A stretch of 64,000 nucleotides of DNA from Bacteroidales bacterium (GCA_012521995.1 JAAYLH010000088.1:565-64564); one strand, 5' to 3'. Counted from the stretch's first letter, positions 6,900 to 58,552 are shown. The notes: generated by a model from the letters alone, not told the origin. A program made the numbers and translations.

Positions 6900-9800
6900 A
6901 TGGTCACCCAGGAATGCGGCATGGAAAAAGGTGATGATTTGCGAAACGTGAATGAGCCCGGTTTCTTCAGCCAGGCAGGCAGTGAGCCACCCCTCCAGGT
7001 GAGTCATGAGGAGATTCTGCGCCTGCTTGCCGAAAAACGGGAGCGTTTAAAGGAGTTGGGAGCCATCAACCAGACGGTAAGCATCCTCAGAGAAGAGAAG
7101 TCCATTGGGGCGATACTGGCAGATATAGCAAAAATGCTCCCAACGGCCTGGCAGTATCCTGATGACGCTGTATCGCGCATCAAGTACGGCAAGGAGACCT
7201 ACATCAGCAGCAACCGTTTCAGGGAAAGCCGCTGGTGGCAGCGGAAAACCTTTGAAACCATTGACGGGCGTGAGGGATTGGTTGAGGTATTTTATCTGAG
7301 CGAGCATCCCCAGGCTGATGAAGGGCCTTTCCTGATGGAAGAGCGCCAACTGCTTGCCAACATCACCAACCTGATCACCGGCCACCTGAACACCAGCATT
7401 GGCAAAAGCCTCCTGAAAAAAAACATCAGGGAACAACAGAATGCCACTCAGACCAAGCAGGAACAAGAACACGCCGCCCAGAACAGGCACCTGTTGCAAA
7501 GGTTCCTGATAAAGCATAACTCTGACAGGGATATCTATCACGATCTGATGCAGTACAAAGTGCGGGAAATCCTGCTGGTAGCCAACCTGTACGATGCTTA
7601 CAACATTGAACAGGAAGGCCGCTTTTTCGAGCAGGTCACGGGGGAGTATTACCAGCTAAACCTCTCCTCTGCCCCCCGGATCACCGGGGTTAGCACCCCT
7701 GAAGAAGCCCTGGAAAAGCTGCAGGAAAAACACTTCGACCTGGTGATCGTCATGATGGGGGTTGAAAAATCCACGCCAATCCAGTTAAGCCGCATCATCA
7801 AACAAATATACCCGTCCGTACCCATCTTCCTGCTGCTGAACAACAACAGCGATATTGCCATGTTTGAGGATGGCAACAAGCAGATCGCTCCCATAGATAA
7901 GATCTTTGTCTGGAACGGTGATTCAAAGGTCTTTCTGGCGATGGTGAAATACAACGAGGACCGCTATAACGTAGAAAGCGACATCCGCATCGGTATGGTT
8001 CGGGTGATCTTGCTTGTTGAGGATTCTGCCAGGTATTATTCAAGGTACTTGCCTATTCTCTATTCCATAGTAATTGAACAAACCCAGCAACTCATTGAGG
8101 AAGTAAATACCGACGAGCTCTATAAATTGTTGAAGATGCGCGTCAGGCCCAAAATACTGCTGGCATCCAATTACAAGGAGGCCGTGCAGCTGTTCAACAA
8201 ATACCAGGACAACCTGCTGTGCATCATTTCGGATGCCAAGTTTGAAAAGGATGACCAGCTGGATGACTCGGCAGGGGTCAGCCTGATCAGATATGCCAGG
8301 GAGCGTATCCCTGACCTGCCAACGGTATTGCAGTCGTCGGACCCTGACAACGCCCAAAAAGCCTATGAGCTCAAATCGACCTTCATCAACAAGAACTCGG
8401 AAAACCTGAAGCAGGACCTTCAGAGTTTCATCAACTATTACCTGGGATTTGGAAACTTTGTCTATAAGGATGAGGAAGGCCGCAAGGATATTGCCATTGC
8501 CAGGTCGATGAAAGAATTCCAGAATCATTTGCGTACCATCCCCGAAAAGTCGCTGATCTACCATGCCCGTAAAAATCATTTCTCACACTGGCTGATGGCC
8601 CGCGGAGAGATACAGATCGCCAAGCGCATCAAACCTCTGCGCGTCGATGACTTTCAGTCGCCGGGAAGCCTGAGGGAGTTCTTGCTAAACATCATTGAAG
8701 AGTGTATCCGCGATAAGCAGAAGGGGAAAGTGATCAATTTTGAAGAATCAGCCCTCCTTGATGAGACCAACATTGTAAGCATGGCTTCGGGCTCCCTTGG
8801 GGGCAAGGGCCGGGGACTTGCTTTCATCAACATGATCATCAACAACTTCAATTTTTCGGAACTGGTGCCTGACATACGCATCCTTACCCCGCGTACTTCC
8901 ATCATCGGGACTGAAGAATTTGAGCGTTTTCTACAGAACAACCATATTTCAGAAAAAGTCAACGTCAACACGGAATATGAGACGCTAAAGGAAGTTTTTA
9001 TGTCGGGACGCCTAACTGACGCCCTGCAGCGGAGGCTCAGGACCTACCTGTCTATTATTCACCGCCCCCTTGCCATACGGTCTTCCAGCCTTTTTGAGGA
9101 TTCGCTGATGCAACCTTTCGCAGGCATTTTCGACACTTTCCTGTTGCCCAACAACCACCCTGACATTAAGGTACGGCTCGAGCAGGTGATGAACGCCATC
9201 AAGCTGGTATTCGCCTCCATCTATTCCCCCACGGCCTCTGCTTATTTCCAGGCTGTAAATTATAAGATAGAGGAAGAGAAAATGGGGGTTATCATACAGG
9301 AGGTGGTGGGCAATGAGTACAATGGTTGTTTCTACCCCCACATCAGCGGGGTGGCCCAATCGTATAACTTCTACCCTTTTTCGTATATGCAGCCTGATGA
9401 GGGATTTGCAGTGGCCGCTGTAGGATTGGGCAAATATGTCGTGGAAGGCGAAAAGACATACCGCTTCTCTCCGGTGCACCCCCAGCTTGAGATATACACC
9501 CCGCGCGACCTGTTCAAGAATTCACAGGTGCATTTTTATGCCATCGATATGAGGAAGCAGGACATCAACCTGTTGGAGGGGGAAGATGCAGGGCTGGTCA
9601 AGATCGAAATTGACAAGGCCGAAATGCACGGGACCCTGAAACACTGTGCCTCGGTATACGACATCTCGAATGAGCGCACCATCCCCGGAATCACCCAGCC
9701 GGGGCCCAGGGTGATCAATTTTGCCAACATTCTGAAATACGCCTATATCCCCCTTGCCAAAACCATACAGGTCATCCTCGACATCGTGTCTGAGTCTATG

Positions 9801-10481
9801 GGCACCCCGGTAGAGATAGAATTTGCCGTTGACCTGAACAAAGACAAGCAGGGTCGCGCGGCCTTCTTCCTGTTGCAGGTAAAGCCCCTGATCAAAAATA
9901 TTATCGACAGCGAAATCTCTATTGACAAGATAGAAAACGAAAGGCTCATGCTTTATTGCGAGAACGGCATGGGCAACGGGCGGATCAGCAGCATTTATGA
10001 TGTGATCTTCGTGGATGTGGAGCACTTCGACCGCCTGAAGACCGAGAAGATGCGCGATGAAATTGAACGTCTCAACAAGAAAATGGTGGAGGAGAACCGG
10101 AAATATATCCTGATAGGCCCCGGCCGCTGGGGAACCCGCGACCGCTTCATCGGCATTCCCGTTGTATGGTCCCAGATCTCCAATGCGCGGATCATCGTGG
10201 AAGTCAGCCTCGAGCATTTCCCGCTGGATGCCTCCCTGGGCTCCCACTTCTTCCACAATGTGATCTCAATGAACGTAGGTTATTTCTCGGTGAAGCACAA
10301 CGACCTGATAGACTACATCAACTGGGAGGCTCTGAAAAGCGCCCCGCTGAAAGAAGCGACACGTTTCTTCAGGCATGTGCGTTTTGATAAGCCCCTGGAG
10401 ATCATCATGGATGGGAAGAAGCGAACCTCACTGATCTATTTCCCAAAGGAAAAAAACGATACTGAAAACAAAAATGTATGA
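6900..10481 (+). CDS. multidomain signalling protein: N-terminal sensor-like domain, degenerate receiver, intact receiver, PPDK_N/PEP-synthase-type ATP-grasp (PEP/pyruvate-binding domain family) and a conserved C-terminal module
   Basis: 1193 aa. Receiver-like 1: EILLVANLYD...FDLVIVMMG. Receiver 2: ILLVEDS...IISDAKF...VLQSSD...FINKNS. ATP-grasp: GSLGGKGRGLAF, LAIRSSSLFEDS..QPFAG, GVIIQEVVG, VEIEFAVD...FLLQVKPL. C-terminus: ILIGPGRWGTRDRFIGIPVVW...LGSHFFHN. No TIM-barrel PEP-utiliser domain is recognisable. Confidence 0.75.
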   Translation: MVTQECGMEKGDDLRNVNEPGFFSQAGSEPPLQVSHEEILRLLAEKRERLKELGAINQTVSILREEKSIGAILADIAKMLPTAWQYPDDAVSRIKYGKETYISSNRFRESRWWQRKTFETIDGREGLVEVFYLSEHPQADEGPFLMEERQLLANITNLITGHLNTSIGKSLLKKNIREQQNATQTKQEQEHAAQNRHLLQRFLIKHNSDRDIYHDLMQYKVREILLVANLYDAYNIEQEGRFFEQVTGEYYQLNLSSAPRITGVSTPEEALEKLQEKHFDLVIVMMGVEKSTPIQLSRIIKQIYPSVPIFLLLNNNSDIAMFEDGNKQIAPIDKIFVWNGDSKVFLAMVKYNEDRYNVESDIRIGMVRVILLVEDSARYYSRYLPILYSIVIEQTQQLIEEVNTDELYKLLKMRVRPKILLASNYKEAVQLFNKYQDNLLCIISDAKFEKDDQLDDSAGVSLIRYARERIPDLPTVLQSSDPDNAQKAYELKSTFINKNSENLKQDLQSFINYYLGFGNFVYKDEEGRKDIAIARSMKEFQNHLRTIPEKSLIYHARKNHFSHWLMARGEIQIAKRIKPLRVDDFQSPGSLREFLLNIIEECIRDKQKGKVINFEESALLDETNIVSMASGSLGGKGRGLAFINMIINNFNFSELVPDIRILTPRTSIIGTEEFERFLQNNHISEKVNVNTEYETLKEVFMSGRLTDALQRRLRTYLSIIHRPLAIRSSSLFEDSLMQPFAGIFDTFLLPNNHPDIKVRLEQVMNAIKLVFASIYSPTASAYFQAVNYKIEEEKMGVIIQEVVGNEYNGCFYPHISGVAQSYNFYPFSYMQPDEGFAVAAVGLGKYVVEGEKTYRFSPVHPQLEIYTPRDLFKNSQVHFYAIDMRKQDINLLEGEDAGLVKIEIDKAEMHGTLKHCASVYDISNERTIPGITQPGPRVINFANILKYAYIPLAKTIQVILDIVSESMGTPVEIEFAVDLNKDKQGRAAFFLLQVKPLIKNIIDSEISIDKIENERLMLYCENGMGNGRISSIYDVIFVDVEHFDRLKTEKMRDEIERLNKKMVEENRKYILIGPGRWGTRDRFIGIPVVWSQISNARIIVEVSLEHFPLDASLGSHFFHNVISMNVGYFSVKHNDLIDYINWEALKSAPLKEATRFFRHVRFDKPLEIIMDGKKRTSLIYFPKEKNDTENKNV

Positions 10482-13456
10482 CCCTGAAATCAAAATACAA
10501 GTACAACGAACAGTATGCCACTGATCATTATGAGTTTGCAGAGATCGCTTACGAGGACCTCATGCAAAAACGCATCATCAATGTGTTGTTGATCTGCAGC
10601 AACTATGATGCGTTCATGCTTGAAGAAGACGGGCGTATCAACGAGAAGATCTTTCTGGAATATACCTCAAAGAACCTGCGTTACCCTCCGCAGTTCACCA
10701 AGGCCAGTTCGTCAGAAGAAGCATTTGAACTCCTGGAGGAAAAAGATTTCGACCTGGTGATCACCATGCTGAATGTAGGGAAGATTGATGCCTTTGAGAT
10801 GGCCAAAAAGGTCAAGAAGCGTTACCCGAGGATTCCGATAGTGGTGCTGACCCATTTCTCGCGAGAGGTATCCATGAAGCTGGCCCACGAGGACATGAGC
10901 GGTATCGATTACGTCTTTTCATGGCTGGGCAATTCAAGCCTTCTGCTGGCCATCATCAAGCTCCTTGAAGACCGTATGAATGCCGAATTCGATATAGACG
11001 TGATCGGGGTTCAGGCCATTCTGTTGGTGGAAGACTCAGTGCGCTATTATTCATCCTACCTCCCAACCATTTACAAGGTTATTTTTGATCAGACCAACGA
11101 ACTGATGACCGAGGGCCTGAACGAGCACCGAAAAACCATGCGTATGCGTGCAAGGCCCAAGATCCTCCTAGCAAAGACCTATGAAGATGCGGTGAGCCTG
11201 TTTGAGAAGTATCACCAGAACCTGCTGGGGGTCATTTCCGACATCAGCTATTCCAGGAAAGGAAAGAATGACAAGGAAGCCGGGATCAAGTTTGCCGGGC
11301 ACATCCGCAAGGTCGACAGCCAGTTGCCCATCATGCTGCAGTCGTCTGATGACTGGGATGAGCTCATCATGCAGGAGCTCAAGGTGAATTTTATCAACAA
11401 GTATTCCAAGACCCTGCTTGTTGAGCTCAAGCAATACATCAGGGAAAACTATGGCTTCGGTGATTTTGTATTCAAGGACCCGGGCAGCGGCAGGGAAGAA
11501 GACCGCGCCAACAACCTGCATTCCCTCCAGGTGAAAATTGCCAAAGTGCCCCCAAAGAGCCTGGAATATCACGTTTCCAACAACCATTTTTCCCGTTGGC
11601 TAAAAGCACGTGCCCTGTTTTCAATTGCCAATGTATTTGCCGAGAAGAGCCGTGAAGACTTTGGCAACATCGAGGAGATCCGCAATTACCTCATTGACAC
11701 CATCGCCAACTACCGCCGCACCAAGGGCCGCGGGATCATCGCCAGTTATTTTGATGAGTATGCAGTATTCACCCGCCTGGGCGACGGCCAGCTGGGGGGC
11801 AAGGCGCGCGGGCTTGCCTTTATCGACTCGGTGATCAACAAGTACAAAATTATGTACAAGTGGGAAGGCGTCACCGTAGCCATCCCCAGGACGGTGGTGA
11901 TCACCACCGATATGTTCGATGAATTCATGGAGGAAAATGACCTGTATGATTTTGCCCTGTCCAATGCCGGCGATGAGGAGATCCTCGAACGATTTGTGCA
12001 ATCCCGAACGCCCTCCCGCCTGAAATCCTACGTGAAGGACATTATAGGGTTCTTCAATGCCCCGCTGGCCATCCGCTCAAGCAGCCTGCTTGAGGACAGC
12101 CACTACCAGCCCTTTGCAGGGGTGTATAGCACGTATATGATCCCCAACAACCATTCGGAACGGCAGGTAAGGATGCAACAGCTGGAGCAGGCCATAAAGA
12201 GCGTATATGCATCGGTATTTTTTCGCGAAAGCAAAGCCTATATTGCAGCCACATCGAACGTTATAGACGAGGAGAAAATGGCCGTGGTGATCCAGGAGGT
12301 AGCCGGGCGCTCGTATGGCAACAAGTTCTACCCCACCCTGTCCGGCGTTGCCCGGTCGGTGAACTTTTACCCCATCGAGCCGGAGCGCTATGAAGACGGC
12401 GTCTCAAACATCGCCTTTGGCCTGGGACGCACCATTGTGGAAGGAGGTATTTCCCTGCGCTTTTCCCCAAAATATCCTGAGAAATCGCTGCAGCTCTCCA
12501 ACCCTGAGTTTGCCCTGCGCGACAGCCAGAAGGAGTTCTTCAGCCTGAGCATGGACCCTGAAAAATTCCGGCCGAGCACCAATGATGCTGAAAACCTCTA
12601 TAAACTCAGGATCAAGGATGCCCTTTCCGATTCTTCGTTGAAATACGTGGCTTCCACCTTCGACTATGAGGATCACATGGTCCGCGATGGCATTTATGAC
12701 AGTGGAAAGGTAATAATAACCTTCTCCAATATATTGAGGAACAATGCCTTTCCCCTGGCCAACATCCTCAAGACCCTGCTGGAAATCGGGCAGAGGGAGA
12801 TGAACAACCAGGTAGAAATTGAATTTGCTGCAAGCCTCGATGTCCCCCAGGGCCAAAATATGGGGTTTAACTTTTTGCAGATCAGACCCATTGTTGAAAC
12901 CCAGGAGCGCCATCGCGTCAAGGTGAACACCGGTTTCCCCGAGAAATCCATCATCATCAGCCACCAGGCCCTGGGCAACGGAGTCATCGACAACATCCGC
13001 GACTTAATATACGTGAAGCCTGATTCATTCAACCCCGTCAACACCAAAGACATAGCGGAGATCATTGACCGGCTGAACAGCCAGTTTGTTGCCAGGCAGG
13101 GCAATTATATCCTGGTTGGGCCCGGGCGGTGGGGATCGGCGGATCCATGGCTTGGAATCCCGGTGAAATGGGCGCAGATCTCGGGGGCAAGGCTTATCGT
13201 CGAAGCAGGGATGAAAAACTTCCATATCGACCCCAGCCAGGGCACTCATTTCTTCCAGAACCTCACATCTTTCAATGTCGGTTACTTCACAATAAACCCT
13301 TTTATTGGTGAAGGATACTACGACCTGGATTTCCTCAACAAGCACAAAGCGGCCTACGAGGACCAATTCGTCAGGCACCTGAAATTCACCGACCCTGTGA
13401 TCATTAAAATAGATGGAAGCAAAAAGGCCGGAATTGTTTTAAAACCAGAAAAATAA
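10478..13456 (+). CDS. paralogue of the preceding gene: degenerate receiver, intact receiver, PPDK_N-type ATP-grasp and conserved C-terminal module
   Basis: 992 aa. Its ATG overlaps the upstream TGA (ATGA at 10478-10481). INVLLICSNYD...FDLVITMLN; ILLVEDS...VISDISY...MLQSSD...FINKYS; GQLGGKARGLAF, LAIRSSSLLEDS..QPFAG, AVVIQEVAG, VEIEFAAS...FLQIRPI; ILVGPGRWGSADPWLGIPVKW...QGTHFFQN. Confidence 0.75.
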   Translation: MTLKSKYKYNEQYATDHYEFAEIAYEDLMQKRIINVLLICSNYDAFMLEEDGRINEKIFLEYTSKNLRYPPQFTKASSSEEAFELLEEKDFDLVITMLNVGKIDAFEMAKKVKKRYPRIPIVVLTHFSREVSMKLAHEDMSGIDYVFSWLGNSSLLLAIIKLLEDRMNAEFDIDVIGVQAILLVEDSVRYYSSYLPTIYKVIFDQTNELMTEGLNEHRKTMRMRARPKILLAKTYEDAVSLFEKYHQNLLGVISDISYSRKGKNDKEAGIKFAGHIRKVDSQLPIMLQSSDDWDELIMQELKVNFINKYSKTLLVELKQYIRENYGFGDFVFKDPGSGREEDRANNLHSLQVKIAKVPPKSLEYHVSNNHFSRWLKARALFSIANVFAEKSREDFGNIEEIRNYLIDTIANYRRTKGRGIIASYFDEYAVFTRLGDGQLGGKARGLAFIDSVINKYKIMYKWEGVTVAIPRTVVITTDMFDEFMEENDLYDFALSNAGDEEILERFVQSRTPSRLKSYVKDIIGFFNAPLAIRSSSLLEDSHYQPFAGVYSTYMIPNNHSERQVRMQQLEQAIKSVYASVFFRESKAYIAATSNVIDEEKMAVVIQEVAGRSYGNKFYPTLSGVARSVNFYPIEPERYEDGVSNIAFGLGRTIVEGGISLRFSPKYPEKSLQLSNPEFALRDSQKEFFSLSMDPEKFRPSTNDAENLYKLRIKDALSDSSLKYVASTFDYEDHMVRDGIYDSGKVIITFSNILRNNAFPLANILKTLLEIGQREMNNQVEIEFAASLDVPQGQNMGFNFLQIRPIVETQERHRVKVNTGFPEKSIIISHQALGNGVIDNIRDLIYVKPDSFNPVNTKDIAEIIDRLNSQFVARQGNYILVGPGRWGSADPWLGIPVKWAQISGARLIVEAGMKNFHIDPSQGTHFFQNLTSFNVGYFTINPFIGEGYYDLDFLNKHKAAYEDQFVRHLKFTDPVIIKIDGSKKAGIVLKPEK

Positions 13457-13567: not shown

Positions 13568-14905
13568 ATGGACTTAGAAAAGATCATGGCAGACCTGGAA
13601 AAGAAAAACCCGGGGCAACCCGAATTTCTCCAGGCAGTAAAGGAAGTACTTGAAACCATTGAAGACGTTATCAAGGAAAATCCCAAGTATGAAGCCAACA
13701 ACGTCATTGAAAGAATCATTGAACCCGACAGAGTTATCTCCTTCAAGGTAGAATGGCTTGACGACAAGGGCAATGTAAACGTGAACCGTGCATACCGCGT
13801 TCAGTTTAACAACGCCATTGGTCCATACAAGGGCGGGATGCGCTTCCACCCCAGTGTAACACTTGGTGGCCTGAAGTTCCTTGGTTTTGAGCAGACTTTC
13901 AAAAACGCACTTACCACCCTTCCGATGGGAGGTGCCAAAGGGGGTAGCGATTTCAATCCCAAAGGTAAATCCAATGCTGAGATCATGCGTTTCTGCCAGG
14001 CACTTATGGCTGAACTCTATCGTTACATCGGGCCGGACACCGATATCCCGGCAGGAGACATCGGCGTAGGTGGACGCGAAATTGGTTATATGTACGGCAT
14101 GTACAAGAAGCTTGTCAACACCCACAACGGTGTATTCACAGGCAAGGGTCGTAACTGGGGCGGAAGCCTTGTTCGTCCCGAAGCTACCGGTTTCGGTAAC
14201 GTATATTTTGCACAGGAAATGCTGAAGACCCGCGGTGAAACCCTCAAGGGAAAAACCGTTGTGGTATCCGGTTTCGGTAACGTTGCCTGGGGCTCAGTAA
14301 CCAAGGCCACCCAGCTTGGCGCCAAGGTTGTAGCCATCAGCGGCCCCGATGGATACGTATACGATCCCGATGGCATCAGCGGCGAAAAAATCGACTATAT
14401 GCTTGAGCTGCGTGCCTCCAACCAGGATATCGTGAAGCCCTACACCTATGAATTCCCCAACGCTCAGTTCTTTGAAGGCAAGCGACCCTGGGAGGTAAAA
14501 TGCGATGTAGCGCTCCCCTGCGCCATCCAGAACGAGCTCAATGGCGAAGATGCTCAAAGACTTATTGACAATGGCGTTATTTGCGTCTCCGAAGGAGCAA
14601 ACATGCCCTGTACCCCTGAAGCAATGGAGATATTCCTGAAAGCGAAAATTCTGTACGCCCCCGGAAAAGCTTCCAACGCTGGTGGTGTGTCCACTTCAGG
14701 TCTGGAGCAAACCCAGAATGCTATGAAACTGAACTGGAACGCCAAAGAAGTGGAAGAAAAACTCCACAGCATCATGGTCAACATCCACGAGGCTTGCGTG
14801 AAATACGGCAAGGAAGCCGATGGATATGTTAACTATGTAAAAGGCGCCAACGTGGCCGGCTTCATTAAAGTGGCCGACGCCATGATAGACCAGGGCGTAA
14901 TTTAA
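13568..14905 (+). CDS. glutamate dehydrogenase, NAD-type dinucleotide fingerprint (second paralogue)
   Basis: 445 aa. GPYKGGMRFHP and PMGGAKGGSDFNPKGK. The Rossmann region VSGFGNVAWGS...ISGPDGYVYDPDGI resembles Clostridium symbiosum NAD-GDH as I recall it. The cofactor call is less certain than the GDH call. Confidence 0.9.
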   Translation: MDLEKIMADLEKKNPGQPEFLQAVKEVLETIEDVIKENPKYEANNVIERIIEPDRVISFKVEWLDDKGNVNVNRAYRVQFNNAIGPYKGGMRFHPSVTLGGLKFLGFEQTFKNALTTLPMGGAKGGSDFNPKGKSNAEIMRFCQALMAELYRYIGPDTDIPAGDIGVGGREIGYMYGMYKKLVNTHNGVFTGKGRNWGGSLVRPEATGFGNVYFAQEMLKTRGETLKGKTVVVSGFGNVAWGSVTKATQLGAKVVAISGPDGYVYDPDGISGEKIDYMLELRASNQDIVKPYTYEFPNAQFFEGKRPWEVKCDVALPCAIQNELNGEDAQRLIDNGVICVSEGANMPCTPEAMEIFLKAKILYAPGKASNAGGVSTSGLEQTQNAMKLNWNAKEVEEKLHSIMVNIHEACVKYGKEADGYVNYVKGANVAGFIKVADAMIDQGVI

Positions 14906-14925
14906 AAAGGGGTCATTCCTCAGAA

Positions 14926-14960
14926 AAGGGCTGTGCGGAATACTGCACGGCCCTTTTTAT
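14926..14960 (+). terminator. rho-independent terminator after the second gdh gene
   Basis: GGGCTGTGC-ggaatact-GCACGGCCC hairpin (one G-U pair) followed by TTTTTATT. Confidence 0.55.
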
Positions 14961-15072: not shown

Positions 15073-15594
15073 ATGCGCATAAAAAGAATAGTCCCTGCCC
15101 CCCCTCTTCAGGATGTGTTCCCTTCGGTCGACCTCTCGCAAATGGATGCCCTCATTGCCCGCTACAAAGGCAAAAAAGGCAAGCTCATCCCTCTGCTCCA
15201 GGGGACACAGGCCCTCTTCGGCTATATTCCAAGAGAGGCTTTTTTGAAGCTAAACCGGGAAACGGGACTGAGCCTCAGCGAGCTTTACGGAGTGGCCACT
15301 TTCTATGCTCAATTCAGGCTTACCCCTTCGGGAAAGCACATCATCAAAATGTGTCACGGAACCGCTTGTCACGTCCAGAATGTTACGGCTATCACGGATG
15401 AGCTGCTTGACTTTCTGGAAGTAAAAGACGGTGGGACAACCGCTGATGGTCTTTTCACAGTCGAGACGGTGGCTTGCCTGGGGTGCTGTTCCCTCGCCCC
15501 TGTGATGATGGTGGACGAGGAGACCCACGGAAAATTGACACCAAAAGAAGCCGTGAAGATCATCAAAGAGATCCGCCGCAACGAGATCCAGTAA
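15073..15594 (+). CDS. NuoE/HydC/FdsG-like [2Fe-2S] thioredoxin-fold subunit
   Basis: 173 aa. Cys pattern MCHGTACH...VACLGCCSLAPVM is typical of NuoE (24-kDa subunit) homologues. Confidence 0.85.
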   Translation: MRIKRIVPAPPLQDVFPSVDLSQMDALIARYKGKKGKLIPLLQGTQALFGYIPREAFLKLNRETGLSLSELYGVATFYAQFRLTPSGKHIIKMCHGTACHVQNVTAITDELLDFLEVKDGGTTADGLFTVETVACLGCCSLAPVMMVDEETHGKLTPKEAVKIIKEIRRNEIQ

Positions 15595-15612
15595 ACCCAA
15601 AAGGACAGGCAA

Positions 15613-17391
15613 ATGAAAAAGACAAAGGTAATTGTAGGCTTGGGAAGTTGTGGCATTGCTGCAGGTGCCGGAAAGACCTATCAGGAATTTGACCGCATCA
15701 GGAAAGCTGATCGGCTGGACTTCGAACTAAGAAAAACAAGCTGTGTGGGCATGTGCTTCCGCGAACCCCTGGTTGAGATCATAGACGATTCGGGCAGCTA
15801 CCTCTATGGCCAGGTGGATCCTTCCAAAGCTGATGAGATCATTGAAAAGCACATCAAGAACTTTTCCCCCATTCCCGAATATATTGTTCAGAGCGAAAAA
15901 TATCCCTCTGCCGATGAGTCGTTCTTCGAGGGACAGGTCAAAATTGCCCTCAGGAACTGCGGGTACATGGACCCGGAAAACATTGAAGAATACGAGGCGC
16001 GTAGCGGTTATGCTGCCATCCGTAAAATTGCCGGCAATCATCTTAGTCCTGAAACGGTGATCCAAATGGTGATCGACTCAGGTCTTCGCGGACGTGGCGG
16101 CGGAGGATTCCAGACAGGCTTGAAATGGAAATTTGCCCGCAATTACGACGCCCCCCAGAAATACGTGATATGCAATGCCGACGAAGGCGACCCTGGGGCT
16201 TTCATGGACCGCTCCATCCTGGAGGGCGACCCCCACAGTGTACTGGAAGGCATGATCCTATGCGGATACTCCATTGGGGCCTCTGAAGGCTACATTTATT
16301 GCAGGGCCGAATACCCCCTGGCCATCAAACGCCTCAACATTGCTCTGGACCAAGCACGGACAAAAGGATACCTTGGTAAGGACCTGTTTGGCATCCGGGG
16401 CTTTCATTTTGATATCAGGATAAAAGAAGGAGCCGGTGCTTTTGTTTGTGGTGAAGAGACCGCCCTCATCGCTTCCATCGAAGGGCGCCGCGGAATGCCC
16501 CGCCGCAGGCCACCCTTCCCGGCCCAAAGCGGCCTATGGAAAAGCCCCACCAACATCAACAATGTCGAGACCCTTGTCAACATCCCCTGGATCATTTTCA
16601 ACGGGCCTGAAGCCTATGCCCGCCTCGGCACCGAGAAAAGCAAGGGCACCAAGGTTTTTGCCCTTACGGGTAAAATAAAACACGGAGGCCTGGTGGAAGT
16701 CCCAATGGGCATAACCATCAAGGATATCATTTACAAGCTTGGAGGAGGCATACAGGGAGACAAGAAATTCAAAGCCGTTCAGCTGGGCGGCCCTTCGGGA
16801 GGCTGTGTGCCCGAATACCTCTCACATACAATTGTCGATTACGACTCAGTTACCGCCACAGGTGCCATTATGGGCTCAGGCGGGATGGTCGTTATGGACG
16901 AAACCACCTGCGTGGTGGATATCGCACGTTTTTTCCTTGATTTCACCCAAAAGGAGTCCTGCGGCAAATGTACCTTTTGCCGCATAGGGACCAAACGCAT
17001 GCTGGAGATCCTGACCCGTATCACTGAAGGCGAAGGTCAGGAGGGCGATATTGAATTGTTGGAAGAACTGGCACAAAACATAAAAGACAGCTCCCTTTGC
17101 GGGCTGGGGCAAACTGCACCCAACCCCGTGCTTACCACCTTGAAATATTTCAGGGATGAATATGAGGCCCACATACGCGACAAGAAGTGCCCGGCGCTAA
17201 GCTGTAAGAAACTGCTGACCTACCAGGTTGACCCCGAAAAATGCACGGGCTGCATGTCGTGCACTAAGGGCTGCCCTGTGGATGCCATCGAAGGCGGCAA
17301 ACGCGAGACGCATTTCATCCACCAGGACATCTGCATTCAATGCGGGGTCTGCTTCACCCGCTGTAAATTCGGGGCTATTCAAATCAGTTAG
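15613..17391 (+). CDS. NuoF/HydB/FdsB-like NADH- and FMN-binding subunit with N-terminal [2Fe-2S]-like domain and C-terminal 2x[4Fe-4S] ferredoxin domain
   Basis: 592 aa. GLRGRGGGGFQTG.KW, CNADEGDPGAFMDR, GAGAFVCGEETALI, ESCGKCTFCR (N3 cluster), and C-terminal CTGCMSCTKGCP...CIQCGVCFTRC. Confidence 0.9.
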   Translation: MKKTKVIVGLGSCGIAAGAGKTYQEFDRIRKADRLDFELRKTSCVGMCFREPLVEIIDDSGSYLYGQVDPSKADEIIEKHIKNFSPIPEYIVQSEKYPSADESFFEGQVKIALRNCGYMDPENIEEYEARSGYAAIRKIAGNHLSPETVIQMVIDSGLRGRGGGGFQTGLKWKFARNYDAPQKYVICNADEGDPGAFMDRSILEGDPHSVLEGMILCGYSIGASEGYIYCRAEYPLAIKRLNIALDQARTKGYLGKDLFGIRGFHFDIRIKEGAGAFVCGEETALIASIEGRRGMPRRRPPFPAQSGLWKSPTNINNVETLVNIPWIIFNGPEAYARLGTEKSKGTKVFALTGKIKHGGLVEVPMGITIKDIIYKLGGGIQGDKKFKAVQLGGPSGGCVPEYLSHTIVDYDSVTATGAIMGSGGMVVMDETTCVVDIARFFLDFTQKESCGKCTFCRIGTKRMLEILTRITEGEGQEGDIELLEELAQNIKDSSLCGLGQTAPNPVLTTLKYFRDEYEAHIRDKKCPALSCKKLLTYQVDPEKCTGCMSCTKGCPVDAIEGGKRETHFIHQDICIQCGVCFTRCKFGAIQIS

Positions 17392-17419
17392 GTAATTTCC
17401 AACAAGAAAACACTCATCT

Positions 17420-20400
17420 ATGAGCCATCTGAATATTATCCTGAACAAGCGAATTGTCAAAGGCCTTGCAGGAGAAAGTATCCTCGACCTTGCCCGCAGG
17501 CATGGCATAGAGATACCTACCCTTTGTCACGACGACCGTCTGGAGCCCTATTCTTCCTGTTACCTCTGTGTAGTGGAGGTTGAAGGTATGCGTGGTTTAC
17601 AGCCCGCCTGCTCCACCAAGATCACTGAAGGGATGAGGATTGAGACCGAGAATGAACGGGTCATAAAATCCCGCAAAATGGCCCTTGAGCTGCTGCTCAG
17701 CAATCACTATGCTGACTGCATCGCGCCCTGCAGAGAGACCTGCCCCGCGGGGGTGGATGTACAGGGCTACATCGCGATGATCAACAAGGGAATGCACCAC
17801 GAAGCTGTTGAGATCATCAAGAATACAAACCCCCTCCCTGCCATATGCGGGAGGGTCTGCGTACGTCCCTGCGAGCTTGCCTGCCGCCGTAACCTTGTAG
17901 AAGGGCTTGGCGTGGGGATCGATTACCTGAAACGATACACTTCTGATATTGACCTCCTTGCATCCGATCGTTTCACTCCTGTTAAGAAACCCACAAGCGG
18001 CAAAAGGGTGGCCATCATCGGGGCAGGTCCGGGCGGCTTAAGCGCTGCCTTCTTCCTGGCAAAGGAAGGACACGAAGTGGAGATCTTCGAGGGGAATGCC
18101 CATGCAGGAGGAATGTTGCGGTATGGGATCCCCCCCTACCGCCTGCCCAACGACATCATCGATAAAGAAGTGGAAGGCATCACCGGCCTGGGCGTGCAGA
18201 TCCACTACAACCTGAAACTGGGTGAAAACCTGAGCTATGCCGAATTAAAGAACAACTTCCACGCCGTCATTCTGGCCATTGGTTCACAAAACGGAACCCG
18301 CATAGGTTGTGAAAACGATGATGCCGGCAATATCTTCTCAGGCATTGACTTCCTGAGAAATATGGAAGCGACGGGCCAGAAATACAACCTCAGCGGGAAA
18401 AAGGTAGGCGTCATCGGGGGCGGAAATACCGCCATGGATTGCTGCCGCACAGCCATGCGGTGCGGGGCCGAAGAGGTCACCGTGATCTACCGCAGGACTG
18501 AAATGGAAATGCCCGCAAACCCCATTGAAATACACGAATCAAAACTGGAGGGCATTCATTACCTCTTCCTAACAGCTCCCGCAAGGGTAAACCCCGATGA
18601 GCAAGGCAACATCAGCACGCTGACCTGCTTCAAGATGGAGCTGGGTGAACCCGATGCTTCGGGGAGGCGCCGTCCCGTAAAAATCGACGGATCAGAATTT
18701 GATATTGAACTCGACATTGTCCTGGCCGCTATTGGACAAAAAACCCACGTGAACTTTATTGAGGACATCAACCGCCATGCCGGAAAAGAACTGCTCATCA
18801 ACAAGTGGGGCGACATCGCCGCCGATAGCAAGACCCTGCGTACGTCCATCGACAATGTCTTTGCCTGTGGCGATGGGGTAACAGGACCTGCCACCCTCAT
18901 TGAAGCCATTGCCCAGGGTCGTCTGGCAGCCCAGGGCTGCCACAAATTCCTGTTGGGACAGGAAGTCACCCCTCCCCCTTACGAGTTCCTGAGCCGGCGC
19001 GACAACTTCCGGGAGCAACTGAAAGCCGACTATGAGGCCTGGTTCGAAAAACAGGAACGCCAGGAGATGCCTACCCTGAACCCCGCTAAAAGAAATAATT
19101 TTGAAGAGGTCGAACTGGGATATGATGATCAGGCCGCTTTTAAAGAAACCCTGCGTTGCCTTGAATGCGGCTGCACAGAGCTCTACACCTGCGAGCTGAA
19201 AAAGCATGCCACTAAATACGAGGCAAGACAAAATCATTACAAAGGAGACTTCAAAAACTACAGGCTGCGCTATGACCACCCCTTTGTGGAAATCGACAAC
19301 AACAAATGCATCCTCTGCAGCCGCTGTGTGAGGATTTGCTCGGAAGTGGTGGGAGCCAATGCCCTCGGGCTCATCAACAGGGGATTTGAGACCTATGTAG
19401 CTCCCAGTATGAGCGACTCATTGCTCCACACGCAATGCGAATCCTGCGGGATGTGTATCGAGACCTGCCCCACGGGCGCCATTACCGAAAACGTCCCCTT
19501 TAAACCGGGCCCAGTGCCCCTTGACCAATTCAACACCCTGTGCAATTACTGCTCGGTTGGTTGCCAGATCACCCTGCACCATAAGTCGCGCTTCTTTGGA
19601 AAAGCCGGGGGCAGCCACGGGCTGATCAACAAGGACGCAAGCATTTGCCGCTATGGCAAGTTTGGCTACCGCTACCTCAACAGGCCCGACAGGATTACAA
19701 AACCCCTATTAAAAGGCAATGGAGGCTTCAGGGAGATCTCCTTTGAAGAAGCCTTTAAGATCATTGCTGAAAAGATAAAAACCGTCACGCCCGATGAAAA
19801 TGCCTTCTATGCGGGCGCAAGGCTTAGCAATGAAGAGATCTATTTGATACAGAAACTGGCCCGAATGGCGGTCCATACAAACAATGTCACCAGCTTTCAT
19901 TACCTGGGCAGGGGTTCGGGCTTTTTTGAGAACAGCCGCAATAACGTACCCTTTGAACAAATCCATTCGGCCCGCCGTATCTTCCTCATAGGCAGTGAGA
20001 TCAACCTGGAAAATGCAGTACCAGGCTATTACATCAACAACCTGAGGGAAAAACAACACATTCCGCTGGAGGTGATCACTACAGAGAGTCAGAGCGCCAT
20101 GGCCCAAAAAGCCGACAGCGTGCTGGCGATTAAGTCCTATGAGCACTTTCTAAGGGCTGCCAACCATTACCTCCTTTCCTGCAAACAGCAAAACGACCTA
20201 TTCATTGAAGACCATTGCAATGGATTTGACCCCTATCGTTTGAACCTCATGCAGGAAGACTTCAACGAGATGCTCACCAAGGCCGGCTGCAGTAAGGAAG
20301 CCCTTGCTGCATTTATTGAAAGCTACAACAACGAACACCGGTCCATCATCCTGTATTCGGAAAAACACCTGAACGCTGCGGCCTGCCATGAGGTCCACAA

Positions 20401-21124
20401 CCTGGCATATCTTTGCGGGAAACCGGGCAAAAACGCCAGTGGGCTCATCAGCCTTAAGGAGAAGAACAATGCCGAAGGCCTGTTCGATATGGGCGCCTCG
20501 GCAGCCCTGGCCCCCGGAGGGAAGGACCTGCATGATGAAGGGGTCCGCATGCAACTGGCAAAGCATTGGCAAACATCAGGTCTGCCCGAAGGTATTGAAG
20601 AAGATCAGTGGGGTTTGTTTCGCTCAGGAAAGCTCAGGAATCTGTTTGTTTTTGGGGAAGACCCCATGGGATGCGCCATCGACAAAGGAGCCATTCGTGA
20701 AGCCCTTCAAAAGGCCGACTTCCTGGTGGTACAGGATCTGTTTATGACCGAAACTGCCGGCCTTGCCGACCTGATCCTCCCTGCCTCCCTGCATTTCGAA
20801 ACGGGTGGCAGCTTCACCAACACCCAGAAGTTCATCCAGCAGTTTGAGGCCGCTTACCCCGGGCTACTGCCCCTGGATAACCTCGGCCAGATAAAGCATA
20901 TGGCAAAAGCCCTGGGCGTGGAGTGGGCCTTCGAAGGCCCCGCCGATGTATTGCTGGAGGCTGCAGGCCTTATCAGGCAAATGCCTGAAAACGGCTGGGT
21001 GCCCTTCAGCTTTCATACCCCCGAAAACCAGCCGGAAACCCGTCATTTTAACCATGGCTGCGACTACCTTGTCAAGTATTTTGACGATGAATGGGATCAT
21101 GCGTTTAACCAAAACCAAGCATAA
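17420..21124 (+). CDS. fusion subunit: [2Fe-2S] ferredoxin, GltD-like NAD(P)H-FAD oxidoreductase, NuoG/FdsA-like Fe-S region, and a degenerate truncated molybdopterin-oxidoreductase (MopB) domain
   Basis: 1234 aa. N-terminus: IEIPTLCHDDRLEPYSSCYLCVVEV. GltD-like: CPAGVDVQGY...NPLPAICGRVCVRPCE, KRVAIIGAGPGGLSAAFFL...GGMLRYGIPPYRLP, VGVIGGGNTAMDC, VFACGDG. Fe-S: CILCSRCVRIC, CESCGMCIETCPTGA. MopB 4Fe-4S: CNYCSVGCQI. The FdhF-type CxxV[U/C]HGPS site reads SFHYLGRGSG. Confidence 0.8.
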   Translation: MSHLNIILNKRIVKGLAGESILDLARRHGIEIPTLCHDDRLEPYSSCYLCVVEVEGMRGLQPACSTKITEGMRIETENERVIKSRKMALELLLSNHYADCIAPCRETCPAGVDVQGYIAMINKGMHHEAVEIIKNTNPLPAICGRVCVRPCELACRRNLVEGLGVGIDYLKRYTSDIDLLASDRFTPVKKPTSGKRVAIIGAGPGGLSAAFFLAKEGHEVEIFEGNAHAGGMLRYGIPPYRLPNDIIDKEVEGITGLGVQIHYNLKLGENLSYAELKNNFHAVILAIGSQNGTRIGCENDDAGNIFSGIDFLRNMEATGQKYNLSGKKVGVIGGGNTAMDCCRTAMRCGAEEVTVIYRRTEMEMPANPIEIHESKLEGIHYLFLTAPARVNPDEQGNISTLTCFKMELGEPDASGRRRPVKIDGSEFDIELDIVLAAIGQKTHVNFIEDINRHAGKELLINKWGDIAADSKTLRTSIDNVFACGDGVTGPATLIEAIAQGRLAAQGCHKFLLGQEVTPPPYEFLSRRDNFREQLKADYEAWFEKQERQEMPTLNPAKRNNFEEVELGYDDQAAFKETLRCLECGCTELYTCELKKHATKYEARQNHYKGDFKNYRLRYDHPFVEIDNNKCILCSRCVRICSEVVGANALGLINRGFETYVAPSMSDSLLHTQCESCGMCIETCPTGAITENVPFKPGPVPLDQFNTLCNYCSVGCQITLHHKSRFFGKAGGSHGLINKDASICRYGKFGYRYLNRPDRITKPLLKGNGGFREISFEEAFKIIAEKIKTVTPDENAFYAGARLSNEEIYLIQKLARMAVHTNNVTSFHYLGRGSGFFENSRNNVPFEQIHSARRIFLIGSEINLENAVPGYYINNLREKQHIPLEVITTESQSAMAQKADSVLAIKSYEHFLRAANHYLLSCKQQNDLFIEDHCNGFDPYRLNLMQEDFNEMLTKAGCSKEALAAFIESYNNEHRSIILYSEKHLNAAACHEVHNLAYLCGKPGKNASGLISLKEKNNAEGLFDMGASAALAPGGKDLHDEGVRMQLAKHWQTSGLPEGIEEDQWGLFRSGKLRNLFVFGEDPMGCAIDKGAIREALQKADFLVVQDLFMTETAGLADLILPASLHFETGGSFTNTQKFIQQFEAAYPGLLPLDNLGQIKHMAKALGVEWAFEGPADVLLEAAGLIRQMPENGWVPFSFHTPENQPETRHFNHGCDYLVKYFDDEWDHAFNQNQA

Positions 21125-21125
21125 A

Positions 21126-21581
21126 ATGAAAACCTTTGATTCACTGGATGAGATCCTCGATTTTGCCATGAACTCCGAACAGGAAGCGGTGGACTTCTAT
21201 ACCGAACTTGCCGACAAGCAAAGAAACCGGCAGATCAGGGAGCTGTTCCTCGAGTTTGCGCAGGAAGAAGTAAGCCATAAGGCAAGGCTTCAGAAAATCA
21301 AAGAAGAGCAGCTTTTCGACCTCCAGACCGAACCCGTAACCGACCTGAAGATATCCGACTATGTGGTTAGCCGCAAACCCTCCCCTGAACTGAGTTATGC
21401 CGATGCCCTGGTGCTGGCCATGAAAAAGGAAAAAGCTGCCTTTAAGCTTTATACAGCCCTGGCCGAACGAACCGGAAACACCGGGCTGAGCAAGGTATTC
21501 CAGGCCCTTGCCCTTGAGGAATCGAGACACAAGCTACGCTTCGAAATAGAATATGACGAATACGTCATGCGTGAAAACTAA
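21126..21581 (+). CDS. rubrerythrin/erythrin-like diiron four-helix-bundle protein
   Basis: I chose the internal ATG at 21126, one nt after the upstream TAA, over the track start 20946, which lies inside the upstream gene. The 151-aa product has paired E...ExxH motifs (EQEAVDFY, QEEVSHK, KKEKAAFKLY, LEESRHK). Confidence 0.75.
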   Translation: MKTFDSLDEILDFAMNSEQEAVDFYTELADKQRNRQIRELFLEFAQEEVSHKARLQKIKEEQLFDLQTEPVTDLKISDYVVSRKPSPELSYADALVLAMKKEKAAFKLYTALAERTGNTGLSKVFQALALEESRHKLRFEIEYDEYVMREN

Positions 21582-21594
21582 GCTGCCTTAAATA

Positions 21595-21625
21595 CAAAAA
21601 GCCGGGAATCCCCGGCTTTATTATT
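21595..21625. terminator. bidirectional terminator between convergent genes
   Basis: AAAAA-GCCGGG-aatc-CCCGGC-TTTATTATT. The hairpin is flanked by an A-run and a T-run. Confidence 0.55.
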
Positions 21626-21655: not shown

Positions 21656-22255
21656 TTAGCTTTTTTTCTTGATGGTGCAGCCGATGGCCCTTGTAAAATC
21701 AGGCTCGGGACGCTTGCCTTTTATCAATGCTTCAATGGCATTGGCAAGGTATTTTTCCTTCACCTGTGAGGCATCCTGGTAGTTGTCGTCAATAGCGCCT
21801 ATGTAAGCTACTTTCAGCTCATCGCCAACGCGCTCAAGCAGGAAAACGTGGGGGGTGCGGGTAGCGCCATACAGCGGCAGCACCTTCTGGCCTTCATCAA
21901 AAACATAGGGGAACGGGAAGCCTTTTTCCCTGGCCCTTTCCTGCATCAGCTCATACGAATCCTGCGGCTGAACTTCAGGGTCGTTTGCGTTGATGGCGAT
22001 CACAGGGAATCCCTTGGCCGCATATTCCTGGTGCAGCGCGATCATGCGATCCTCGTATGCCACCACATAAGGACAGTGGTTACACGAAAAAATTACGATA
22101 AACCCTTTTGCATCAGGATAATCAGACATTGATACATATTTGCCGTCTACATTCTTCAGACGAAAATCACCAGCTACGTCACCTACCTGGTAGCCCTGGG
22201 TAAAACCGGCAGCTGCCAGGAAAAGGATGCCTAAGAAAATACTTGCACGCTTCAT
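21656..22255 (-). CDS. thioredoxin-fold redoxin (AhpC/TSA-TlpA family) with signal peptide
   Basis: 199 aa. Signal-like N-terminus, active-site context FSCNHCPYV, and a redoxin-like FPFPYVFD. Confidence 0.8.
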   Translation of the reverse strand: MKRASIFLGILFLAAAGFTQGYQVGDVAGDFRLKNVDGKYVSMSDYPDAKGFIVIFSCNHCPYVVAYEDRMIALHQEYAAKGFPVIAINANDPEVQPQDSYELMQERAREKGFPFPYVFDEGQKVLPLYGATRTPHVFLLERVGDELKVAYIGAIDDNYQDASQVKEKYLANAIEALIKGKRPEPDFTRAIGCTIKKKS

Positions 22256-22266
22256 TGTTTCTCAAT

Positions 22267-22767
22267 TTAGTTTAATAATGGTTTAATGATTGATTCCAAT
22301 TCTTCCAGGTGAAACTCCTGCTCATAAAAGCCACGGAAACCCCTGGCGAAAATCACCGTTGCCGGAATGGCACCTGTCCATTCCTCGCTGACCAGTGGAA
22401 TCCATCGGTTTGAGTCGGTATCGTCAAGCAGGACCACCTCGCTTTTCATTCCCATACGGTCAACAAAGGGAATCACCCTGCTTTCCAGTTGATTGGGAAA
22501 GTCGAGGCTCACCAGCAACACCTTCACTTTCTGATCCTTGTATTGTTCCTGGATGGTCTCAAACACAGGAATTTCCCTTACACAGGGAGCACACCAGGTG
22601 GCCCAGAAATTTACCACGTAAATCGTGTCATTCTCCAGGTGGAGCCTGGGTTCAAACTCATCAAAGCTGACCTTCCTGATGGCCCTGCCATCAACAGCAT
22701 AGACCTTGTTGATCATGGTCAAAAGACTAACAACCAGTGAAAAACCTAACAATATTTTTTTTGTCAT
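22267..22767 (-). CDS. TlpA-family thiol:disulfide oxidoreductase
   Basis: 166 aa. Signal or TM N-terminus and the WATWCAPCVREIP CxxC motif. Confidence 0.85.
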   Translation of the reverse strand: MTKKILLGFSLVVSLLTMINKVYAVDGRAIRKVSFDEFEPRLHLENDTIYVVNFWATWCAPCVREIPVFETIQEQYKDQKVKVLLVSLDFPNQLESRVIPFVDRMGMKSEVVLLDDTDSNRWIPLVSEEWTGAIPATVIFARGFRGFYEQEFHLEELESIIKPLLN

Positions 22768-34204: not shown

Positions 34205-34463
34205 TGGATCTTATTATGGATCATTTTCTTCTTCAGCCCTAAAACAGGGCGTTTTTCAATTTTATTTCATTCAAGGGTCATTCATGACCAAAGCCCGGAT
34301 AAATTTTCCGTAAAGTTATAAAAAAAGCTATGGCTTGAAAATGCATTATTGTAATACAACGAATAAGAAGGCAGAATATTTGGTACGGTTTTGGATATAT
34401 TCATCCTGTGATCTGCGCTTTAATCGTAATTTTGCAATGAAAATCCATCAAAAAAGAATAAAA

Positions 34464-58389: not shown

Positions 58390-58552
58390 AAAAACGCCAA
58401 AACCAGCTGCCAGCCAACCAAGGGCAATAATTTTCCCCTGACAACCCCCAATTCCCCCATAATCGGGCAAAACCTGCCTTTTGGAAGAGTTTGGCCATTA
58501 CAAGGGATTTTATATTTTTGCAGGAAATTTTAAATTCCTCACCACCCCTTCT

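Follow-up and report, generated by a model that had tools for sequence, protein, structure and literature searches.

A locus of a Bacteroidales bacterium predicted to encode a Bfu/Stn-type NADPH/NADH/ferredoxin transhydrogenase, with a conserved di-iron protein gene

The four-gene locus and its NuoE- and NuoF-like products

In a 64,000-nucleotide (nt) stretch of DNA from a Bacteroidales bacterium (GCA_012521995.1, JAAYLH010000088.1:565-64564; here called the window), we closely examined a group of four genes at positions 15073-21581 on the plus strand. Open reading frame (ORF) calling placed all four in the same direction with spacings of 18, 28, and 1 nt, in agreement with a preliminary description of this DNA. 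Gene A' (15073-15594) encodes a NuoE-like protein of 173 amino acids (aa) equivalent to the subunits named BfuC, StnA, or NfnC, gene B' (15613-17391) a NuoF-like protein of 592 aa equivalent to BfuB, StnB, or NfnB, and gene C' (17420-21124) a fusion protein of 1234 aa equivalent to BfuA, StnC, or NfnA. The fourth gene, D (21126-21581), encodes a ferritin/rubrerythrin-like di-iron protein of 151 aa; the preliminary description had left it uninterpreted, and it is the only part of the locus that lies outside the literature searched.

The reading frame of D is open from 20946 to 21581, and its start was put at the ATG at 21126 because the homologues are almost all 151 aa long. In an identical public contig (run SRR29564169), the gene caller chose the ATG at 21099, which yields a protein of 160 aa and a 26-nt overlap. 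Two terminator-like hairpins mark the boundaries of the unit. The upstream one, located after a glutamate dehydrogenase gene at 14923-14958 (+), consists of a 16-bp stem followed by a U-run (-26.8 kcal/mol, z = -6.2; none of 200 shuffled sequences folded as well); it was absent from the output of a pattern scan and was picked up by reading and folding the sequence. The downstream one, a bidirectional hairpin of 9 bp (6 GC) at 21598-21619, lies 17 nt past the stop codon of D (-17.2 kcal/mol, z = -3.4). It was the top site of the terminator pattern scan and the only one standing out in the terminator and promoter scan, the total counts of which (12 versus 10.4 and 7 versus 5.7 in shuffles) were not above those of shuffled sequences. 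Nothing comparable to the two flanking hairpins was found inside the four-gene unit, and a search of the window against Rfam returned three tRNAs only, all outside the operon. Since the hairpins bracket the genes, co-transcription of all four would be the simplest reading, and D is probably part of this transcript.

A' was assigned to PF01257 (E = 5e-46) and carries a thioredoxin-like [2Fe-2S] cluster site formed by C94, C99, C135, and C139. Its matches among solved structures were NfnC of Caldicellulosiruptor saccharolyticus (9bov_C, the best at 1.2e-50), the archaeal 9n5u_C, and StnA of Sporomusa ovata (8oh5_A), with E-values from 1e-50 to 3e-46. A' shares 52% of its residues with Caldicellulosiruptor NfnC and 48% with Sporomusa StnA.

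For B', Pfam identified PF01512 (158 bits), PF10589 (126 bits), two Fer4 domains (PF00037, residues 537-591), and a weak thioredoxin-like [2Fe-2S] match at residues 34-79, with the SLBB domain PF10531 (26.1 bits) just below its cut-off of 27. The thioredoxin-like N-terminal domain (15613-15897, +) contains C13, C44, C48, and E51, which match the 3Cys+Glu site of Caldicellulosiruptor NfnB. The core for flavin mononucleotide (FMN) and NADH carries the B1 [4Fe-4S] cluster (C450, C453, C456, and C496), and a Zn/B2 site is formed by C433, T471, H520, C526, and C531. In comparison with HydB of A. mobile, H520 aligns with H525, while C433, T471, C526, and C531 align with C438, C476 (Thr in B'), C531, and C536. 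The C-terminal 2x[4Fe-4S] domain (17206-17388, +) has all eight cysteines for the B3/B4 clusters (C544-C554 and C574-C584). The metal sites B2 (with His), B3/B4, and B5, which are specific to the Bfu family, are hence all present in B'. Pfam, NCBIfam, and the alignments agree with the earlier statement that the NuoE/NuoF cofactor motifs are complete and that B' has an extra thioredoxin-like domain at its N terminus and 2x[4Fe-4S] at its C terminus.

The Bfu family has been defined by IPR011538, IPR019554, IPR019575, and IPR017896 for BfuB, by IPR002023 for BfuC, and by clustered genes with a BfuA that has one or more 2Fe-2S and 4Fe-4S ferredoxin-type domains (Schut et al. 2022, PMC9304861). 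The corresponding elements found here are a NuoE-type A', the BfuB domain set in B', Fer2_4 and Fer4_Nqo3 in C', and the clustering of the genes. In phmmer searches, B' scored 849 bits (~1e-254) against each of StnB (8OH5_B), archaeal NfnB (9N5U_B), and Caldicellulosiruptor NfnB (9BOV_B), compared with 745 bits against NiFe-HydB, 605-717 against FeFe-HydB proteins (717, 669, and 605), and 365-400 against the non-bifurcating FdsB/Nqo1. By bit score, Nfn-type BfuB proteins stand about 100 bits or more above hydrogenase-type ones. B' is 63% identical to Sporomusa StnB and 62% to Caldicellulosiruptor NfnB.

The fusion protein C' and the predicted reaction

Pfam arranged C' in the order Fer2_4 (residues 4-78), Fer4_20 (100-177), Pyr_redox_2 (196-500), Fer4_Nqo3 (621-689), Molybdop_Fe4S4 (705-754), and Molybdopterin (758-1147). 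On the DNA (all +), an N-terminal [2Fe-2S] domain (17420-17713) and a GltD/NfnL-like module for flavin adenine dinucleotide (FAD) and NADPH with two [4Fe-4S] clusters (17714-19099) are followed by a Cx2CxCx5C motif plus 2x[4Fe-4S] (19142-19519), a MopB-type [4Fe-4S] site (19520-19690), a degenerate formate dehydrogenase-like domain (19691-20860), and a poorly conserved tail (20861-21121). The GltD motifs AIIGAGPGGLSAAFFL at residues 198-213 and GGGNTAMDC at 333-341, together with the domain order, confirm that the GltD-like module is inserted between the [2Fe-2S] domain and the NuoG/MopB-like region, as had been described. The best match of C' among solved structures was Caldicellulosiruptor NfnA (9bov_A of 9BOV/9BP5, 1178 aa; E = 1.3e-228 over residues 9-1172), ahead of Sporomusa StnC (8oh5_C of 8OH5/8OH9, 1172 aa; E = 4e-219) and the archaeal NfnA of 9N5U (963 aa). 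C' can be aligned co-linearly to StnC and NfnA from end to end, with full-length identities of 38% to Caldicellulosiruptor NfnA and 36% to Sporomusa StnC.

We compared cysteines in HMMER alignments, limited to the aligned 1-835/9-898 stretch. The 26 cysteines common to StnC and NfnA are all kept in C' except C114 (V114) and C671 (I688), and all 22 cysteines in recognizable Fe-S motifs of C' match StnC/NfnA. The kept residues comprise C36, C47, C50, and C64; C100, C104, and C108; C147, C151, and C155; C580, C583, C585, and C591; C630-C640; C673-C683; and C708, C711, C715, and C743. Other redox residues also have their equivalents: K171 corresponds to K170 of StnC, a lysine that, unusually, ligates the first [4Fe-4S] cluster and is strictly conserved in StnC homologues, R241 corresponds to the FAD-site Arg R239 of StnC, and the YRR NADPH motif is represented by R358-R359. 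Across 77 Bacteroidales/Ignavibacteria sequences, 12 of 12 key C' positions were conserved; invariant were the 11 positions H96, six cluster cysteines (C100-C155), K171, R241, and R358-R359, and V114 was Val in 76 of the 77.

As an alternative, the locus could encode a non-bifurcating NADPH oxidoreductase, either an NADPH:sulfur reductase of the Nso type or an NADPH:Fe(III)/ferredoxin reductase of the SfrAB type, with the NuoEF part merely serving as an NADH port. Homologues are annotated as "NADPH-Fe(3+) oxidoreductase subunit beta," NsoC of Thermococcus litoralis has been named a close StnC homologue, and Stn and Nfn enzymes show high activities with artificial acceptors (PMC10482914, PMC11829005), but according to Kremp et al., Nso is itself probably an enzyme functioning as an Stn (PMC7483475). 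Moreover, all Bfu-specific features of the bifurcation core are kept under strong selection, B' being 72-90% identical across the Bacteroidales/Ignavibacteria clade, which makes this alternative very improbable. SfrAB is not known to have NuoE/NuoF partners, which also speaks against this alternative.

The C-terminal part of C' could suggest another enzyme class. Orthologues carry the public annotation "formate dehydrogenase major subunit," and the gene order is fdsGBA-like, as would be expected for an FdsGBA-type, NAD(P)+-linked Mo/W formate dehydrogenase (FDH) with an extra NADPH module. The NCBIfam model Fdh-alpha matched C' with an E-value of 8e-77, yet at 259 bits compared with a cut-off of 666. 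Searched alone, the last 539 aa (19505-21121) matched real FDHs with E-values of 1e-55 to 1e-33, scoring 190 bits against YjgC, 167 against F420-FDH, 163 against FdhF of the hydrogen-dependent CO2 reductase (HDCR), and 162 against W-FDH, compared with 113 against StnC and 105 against NfnA. A segment of ~35 aa (about residues 1030-1066) is FDH-like and lost from both StnC and NfnA.

However, when C' was aligned residue by residue to four real FDHs and the columns were counted in the 77 orthologues, the formate dehydrogenase reading was ruled out at the sequence level, and we regard it as extremely unlikely. The RL(C/U)H motif of FDHs, which holds the metal ligand, is YLGR in C', and the Sec/Cys-His-Arg triad is represented by G830, R831, and K1013. 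In the orthologues, the Sec/Cys column contains Asn, Gly, Asp, or Glu but Cys in no case, and 76 of the 77 have Lys in place of the catalytic Arg. Pfam detected no PF01568 (domain IV) in C', the C terminus of which comes some 150-200 residues earlier than that of FDH alpha subunits. The domain also evolves faster than the rest, with a mean identity of 52% compared with 71-74% in the redox modules, and is the fastest-evolving folded part of C'. Finally, B' has the Bfu-specific sites that are missing from FdsB. As no true FDH active site is present, the FDH-like domain of C' is, like its counterparts in the solved homologues, best read as a probable non-catalytic remnant with a structural role.

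In all three cases, the closest solved structures of A', B', and C' are Nfn/Stn subunits, with E-values down to 1e-254 that exclude chance. The gene order NuoE-NuoF-fusion is that of stnABC and of Caldicellulosiruptor nfnCBA, and the hallmarks of Nfn-Bfu enzymes, i.e., a GltD module between the [2Fe-2S] N-terminal domain and the NuoG-like Fe-S region and the loss of the pterin site residues, were both found. We therefore consider it likely, at a probability of roughly 0.85, that A'B'C' is an NADPH/NADH/ferredoxin transhydrogenase of the Bfu/Stn (Nfn-Bfu) type with D as an accessory outside the catalytic core; the structural matches and ligand residues strongly support the Bfu-type transhydrogenase already proposed in the preliminary description. 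The enzyme is a new, uncharacterized, lineage-level member of a structurally solved kind, and the conserved D gene is its only novel element.

Several observations weigh against this assignment. None of the biochemically studied members comes from Bacteroidota, and C' is only 36-38% identical overall to the characterized large subunits, with ~27-29% in the MopB-like part. As this part is closer to true FDHs than to its StnC/NfnA counterparts, its role might differ. StnC C114, the exchange of which to Ala caused a 50% loss of activity, is Val in C', and the conserved D has no counterpart in the characterized systems. In the leader, a sigma-70 scan gave no promoter, and no exact TAnnTTTG was seen on reading. 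Lastly, we infer both the direction in which the enzyme runs in the cell and its pairing with ferredoxin. With regard to C114, the archaeal NfnA (9N5U) likewise has Val at this position, and the Nfn-Bfu of Thermococcus sibiricus has been shown to bifurcate (PMC9304861).

A mechanism for A'B'C' can be carried over from the solved homologues (PMC10482914, PMC11829005). Hydride transfer from NADPH would reduce the FAD bound by the GltD-like part of C', from which single electrons would travel along the [4Fe-4S]/[2Fe-2S] chain of C', its first cluster being ligated by Lys171, and arrive at cluster B1 and the FMN of B'. There, FMN, B1, and the [2Fe-2S] cluster of A' would split the electrons: one half would pass to NAD+ as hydride, and the other half, at low potential, would reach ferredoxin (Fd) via the mobile A' cluster and the C-terminal 2x[4Fe-4S] of B'. 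The net reversible reaction would be 2 NADPH + NAD+ + Fd(ox) <-> 2 NADP+ + NADH + Fd(red). In the homologues, the complex is a tetramer of heterotrimers, the assembly of which is mediated by the Fdh-like domain. In fermenting Bacteroidales, the NADPH-forming direction would be the more likely one, and it could, for example, supply the GdhA-type glutamate dehydrogenase encoded directly upstream, a protein scoring above the NCBIfam "NADP-specific" cut-off.

Gene D, distribution, and gene neighborhood

D matched PF02915 (Rubrerythrin, E = 5e-19) and also Ferritin_2 in Pfam. An AlphaFold2 model (predicted local distance difference test score, 87.9) shows a four-helix bundle, for which the best fold matches were the ferritin-like di-iron-carboxylate protein TM1526 (1vjx, template modeling score 0.78) and then rubrerythrin (1ryt, 0.68). 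Among 27 homologues, no variation was seen in the di-iron ligands E18, E48-x2-H51, E102, and E132-x2-H135. Of the two features of rubrerythrins, the di-iron four-helix bundle with two E...ExxH motifs is present, and the Fe(Cys)4 rubredoxin-type domain is missing. Because D contains no cysteine at all, it is an "erythrin-only" ferritin-like protein and not a canonical rubrerythrin.

We then considered 70 Bacteroidales/Ignavibacteria loci related to the one in the window and with enough downstream sequence. D lies on the same strand and within 700 nt downstream of C' in 59 of them; the gap is ≤164 nt in 54, with a modal value of 11 nt (1 nt in the window). In two loci D is 3.6-4.9 kb away, and in nine none was found nearby. 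The homologues of D are 68-86% identical, a degree of conservation close to that of the redox modules. In contrast to this clade, a D-like gene was found near stn/nfn in none of five Firmicutes loci (Sporomusa, Caldicellulosiruptor, Oxobacter, a Peptococcaceae metagenome-assembled genome [MAG], and Fervidicola), which were reached with StnC residues 1-819, rebuilt from a PDB alignment, as the query.

It is conceivable, though doubtful, that the Nfn-Bfu of Bacteroidota/Ignavibacteriota gained a fourth component, with D either taking electrons from the GltD/Fe-S arm for the reduction of H2O2 or O2 or servicing the ~11 Fe-S clusters. A true four-component enzyme, in which D would be a real subunit or dedicated acceptor and electrons from NAD(P)H/Fd would reach its di-iron site to reduce H2O2 or O2, appears quite unlikely; it would amount to an Nfn-Bfu/"Rub-Bfu" hybrid for oxidative-stress defense in anaerobes. 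The close synteny in 59 of 70 loci and the degree of conservation would fit this proposal, as would the invariant di-iron ligands in a cysteine-free protein without an electron-entry center of its own. However, adjacency is not interaction, the case for it is one of synteny, the gene is distant or not nearby in the 11 other loci, and the characterized complexes function as heterotrimers. In favor of the proposal, an enzyme composed of BfuBC and rubrerythrin was predicted by Schut et al. (PMC9304861).

The wider D family gives a mixed picture. It comprises 783 representatives at E ≤ 1e-10, mostly stand-alone. Among the best 150 of 1958 representative matches, we found stand-alone proteins of ~150 aa, two tandem/extended forms, and Desulfoferrodoxin_N fusions; a D-GltD Rosetta-stone fusion, which would have linked D to C', was not among these 150. 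The relatives with fusions (P0457 and P0426, about 40-43% identical to D) begin with an Fe(Cys)4 domain of the desulforedoxin-like kind (Desulfoferrod_N), and this speaks for an electron-accepting D; part of the family is thus built like redox-active rubrerythrins. A 48%-identical relative (L091 9-1372, JGI metagenome 3300041075) overlaps by 4 nt with the end of a short GltD + Fer4_Nqo3 gene, the product of which has no MopB-like domain, and the pairing of GltD-Fe-S proteins with the D family may therefore reach beyond the 1230-aa form. In addition, NCBIfam PRK12775, an FNR-GltD-ferritin fusion, matches both D and the GltD region of C' in co-linear order, but the match of D is weak (E = 4.5e-4). 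Other relatives adjoin unrelated genes. In the three readable neighborhoods of distant ones, the D relative follows a GltD-Fe-S gene, follows a GFO_IDH_MocA oxidoreductase gene, or stands alone, and the association of C' and D is consequently not general to the family. In the literature searched, no paper mentions a BfuA-containing Nfn-Bfu with an added erythrin-only protein.

Downstream of D and converging on the operon, two tandem AhpC/TSA-Redoxin genes (21656-22255 and 22267-22767, both -) are conserved in the closest relatives. By NCBIfam, they resemble thiol:disulfide oxidoreductases of the TlpA/ResA kind. Resembling these rather than peroxiredoxins and lying on the opposite strand, they were not counted as support for an oxidative-stress neighborhood and, if anything, count against the four-component enzyme. 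The conserved D gene bears on the hypothetical idea that Bfu enzymes may feed rubrerythrin-type peroxide reduction.

A search with the C' protein returned >100 clusters at ≥60% identity, 1209-1252 aa long save for one partial record of 1088 aa, under the names "molybdopterin-dependent oxidoreductase," "FAD-dependent oxidoreductase," or "formate dehydrogenase major subunit." A species-level genome scan with a single query, which reaches close relatives only (Bacteroidales and Ignavibacteria), yielded 80 loci, almost all labeled as Bacteroidales/Bacteroidota or Ignavibacteria. The nearest is 77% identical, which places the window in a Bacteroidales lineage that is uncultured. The order NuoE-NuoF-fusion is retained in every complete locus. 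The enzyme thus seems widespread among anaerobic Bacteroidales and Ignavibacteria, and models of metabolism and redox balance in these inhabitants of gut and sediment should therefore take it into account. The members of the C' family that are publicly labeled "formate dehydrogenase major subunit" or "molybdopterin-dependent oxidoreductase" are almost certainly NADPH/NADH/ferredoxin transhydrogenases, and reading them in this way corrects these annotations.

The window encodes two GdhA-type glutamate dehydrogenases, at 13568-14905 (+) and 5243-6586 (-), both above the NCBIfam cut-off for "NADP-specific glutamate dehydrogenase." The former lies directly upstream of the operon and is syntenic in the closest Bacteroidales MAGs, which suggests a link of NADPH supply to glutamate metabolism. 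Further upstream, and preceding gdh-nfn in relatives too, two genes overlapping by 4 nt (6900-10481 and 10478-13456, both +) encode proteins of 1193 and 992 aa, in which PPDK_N (phosphoenolpyruvate-utilizing, ATP-grasp) is the sole recognizable domain, apart from a response-regulator receiver in the second. Elsewhere in the window are a bacterial serpin of 462 aa (34335-35723, +; Pfam Serpin, E = 2.5e-106), tandem paralogous HisKA_2 histidine kinases of ~620 aa (27489-29360 and 29377-31227, both -), and an 850-aa protein consisting largely of DUF5916 (58481-61033, +; E = 9e-201), followed by an Amidohydro_3 protein (61076-62719).

Comparison with known systems

The preliminary description had left open whether this exact fusion has been characterized, and had set a formate dehydrogenase-like scaffold apart from a hydrogenase-like one in Stn. 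The fusion has in fact been purified, assayed, and solved by cryo-electron microscopy (cryo-EM) in two bacteria, with a shorter form in archaea, and the proposed distinction does not hold, because StnC and NfnA already are the same [2Fe-2S]-GltD-NuoG/FdhF-like fusion. StnABC of Sporomusa ovata is known from biochemistry (Kremp 2020, PMC7483475) and cryo-EM (Kumar 2023, PMC10482914; PDB 8OH5/8OH9). StnC (1172 aa) consists of an [Fe]-hydrogenase-like [2Fe-2S] N-terminal domain (1-101), a GltD/NfnB-like part (102-565), and a NuoG/FdhF-like part (683-1172) with an inactive FdhF (PMC10482914). NfnABC of Caldicellulosiruptor saccharolyticus has likewise been studied by biochemistry and cryo-EM (PDB 9BP5/9BOV); its NfnA (1178 aa) is likewise composed of these three domains, its pterin site is incomplete, and the A4/A5 clusters form a dead-end branch (PMC11829005). 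Nfn-Bfu enzymes form Type 1 of the Bfu family with BfuB clade 53, and members in Bacteroidetes were already recorded by Schut et al. (PMC9304861).

The suggested comparison with the Sporomusa subunits gave the same order and the same C' architecture, at identities of 48% (A'), 63% (B'), and 36% (C'). Shared with StnABC are the three subunits and their gene order, the StnC fusion with one [2Fe-2S] and six [4Fe-4S] clusters, the cluster cysteines, K170, R239, and the YRR motif, as well as the thioredoxin-like N-terminal domain, Zn site, and C-terminal 2x[4Fe-4S] domain of StnB. Unlike StnC, C' is 62 aa longer, has Val in place of C114, and contains the extra FDH-like segment of ~35 aa. The host here is a member of the Bacteroidales, and no Wood-Ljungdahl gene context was seen in the window. 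In the Sporomusa locus used for comparison, which holds a genomic orthologue 98% identical to StnC, stnC is followed by pabAB and not by a gene for a di-iron protein.

Caldicellulosiruptor NfnABC, which provides the best PDB match of both C' and A', shares the 3Cys+Glu and 3Cys+His Zn sites, the dead-end A4/A5 cluster branch, and a pterin-less Fdh-like domain. It differs in originating from a thermophilic Firmicute, in having an Fe-alcohol dehydrogenase gene downstream, and in a MopB-like domain that is further from FDHs. Its identities of 52% (A'), 62% (B'), and 38% (C') were obtained with the genomic locus of a Caldicellulosiruptor orthologue. The archaeal Nfn-Bfu (9N5U) has the same BfuBC core, the GltD insertion, and Val at the C114 position, but its NfnA is just 963 aa long with a shortened C-terminal domain. 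An archaeal Nfn-Bfu structure, possibly 9N5U, is reported in PMC12018979, and the enzyme of Thermococcus sibiricus lacks the A4 cluster cysteines (PMC9304861).

More distant are the FDHs of the FdsABG/FdsGBA type (Rhodobacter capsulatus, 6TG9; Cupriavidus necator) and the W-FDH of Methylorubrum (7E5Z/7VW6). They share the NuoE/NuoF/NuoG-like trio and gene layout, the MopB fold, and the N-terminal Fe-S clusters. In contrast to C', they have a Mo/W-bis-molybdopterin guanine dinucleotide cofactor with Cys/Sec-His-Arg and domain IV but are devoid of a GltD module; the B2-B5 sites specific to Bfu enzymes are missing from FdsB, and these enzymes are non-bifurcating. NfnAB/NfnSL (Thermotoga maritima, 4YLF; Pyrococcus furiosus, 5JCA) has a similar GltD/NfnL-like NADPH module with FAD and 2x[4Fe-4S] (E = 2e-91 and 8e-82) and catalyzes the same overall reaction. 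It is nonetheless an unrelated two-subunit enzyme in which the FAD of NfnB/L bifurcates, whereas the counterpart FAD in Stn/NfnABC is non-bifurcating (PMC10482914).

For D, the relevant comparison is Rub-Bfu, a predicted Type 4 Bfu without BfuA in which a rubrerythrin gene follows BfuB (Schut 2022, PMC9304861). As in Rub-Bfu, a di-iron four-helix bundle of the rubrerythrin family is encoded right behind Bfu genes; unlike it, BfuA (C') is present here, D follows C' and not B', and D has no rubredoxin-type domain. If D does act as a fourth component, D and the complex together would represent a hybrid between Nfn-Bfu and Rub-Bfu, the latter being so far a prediction.

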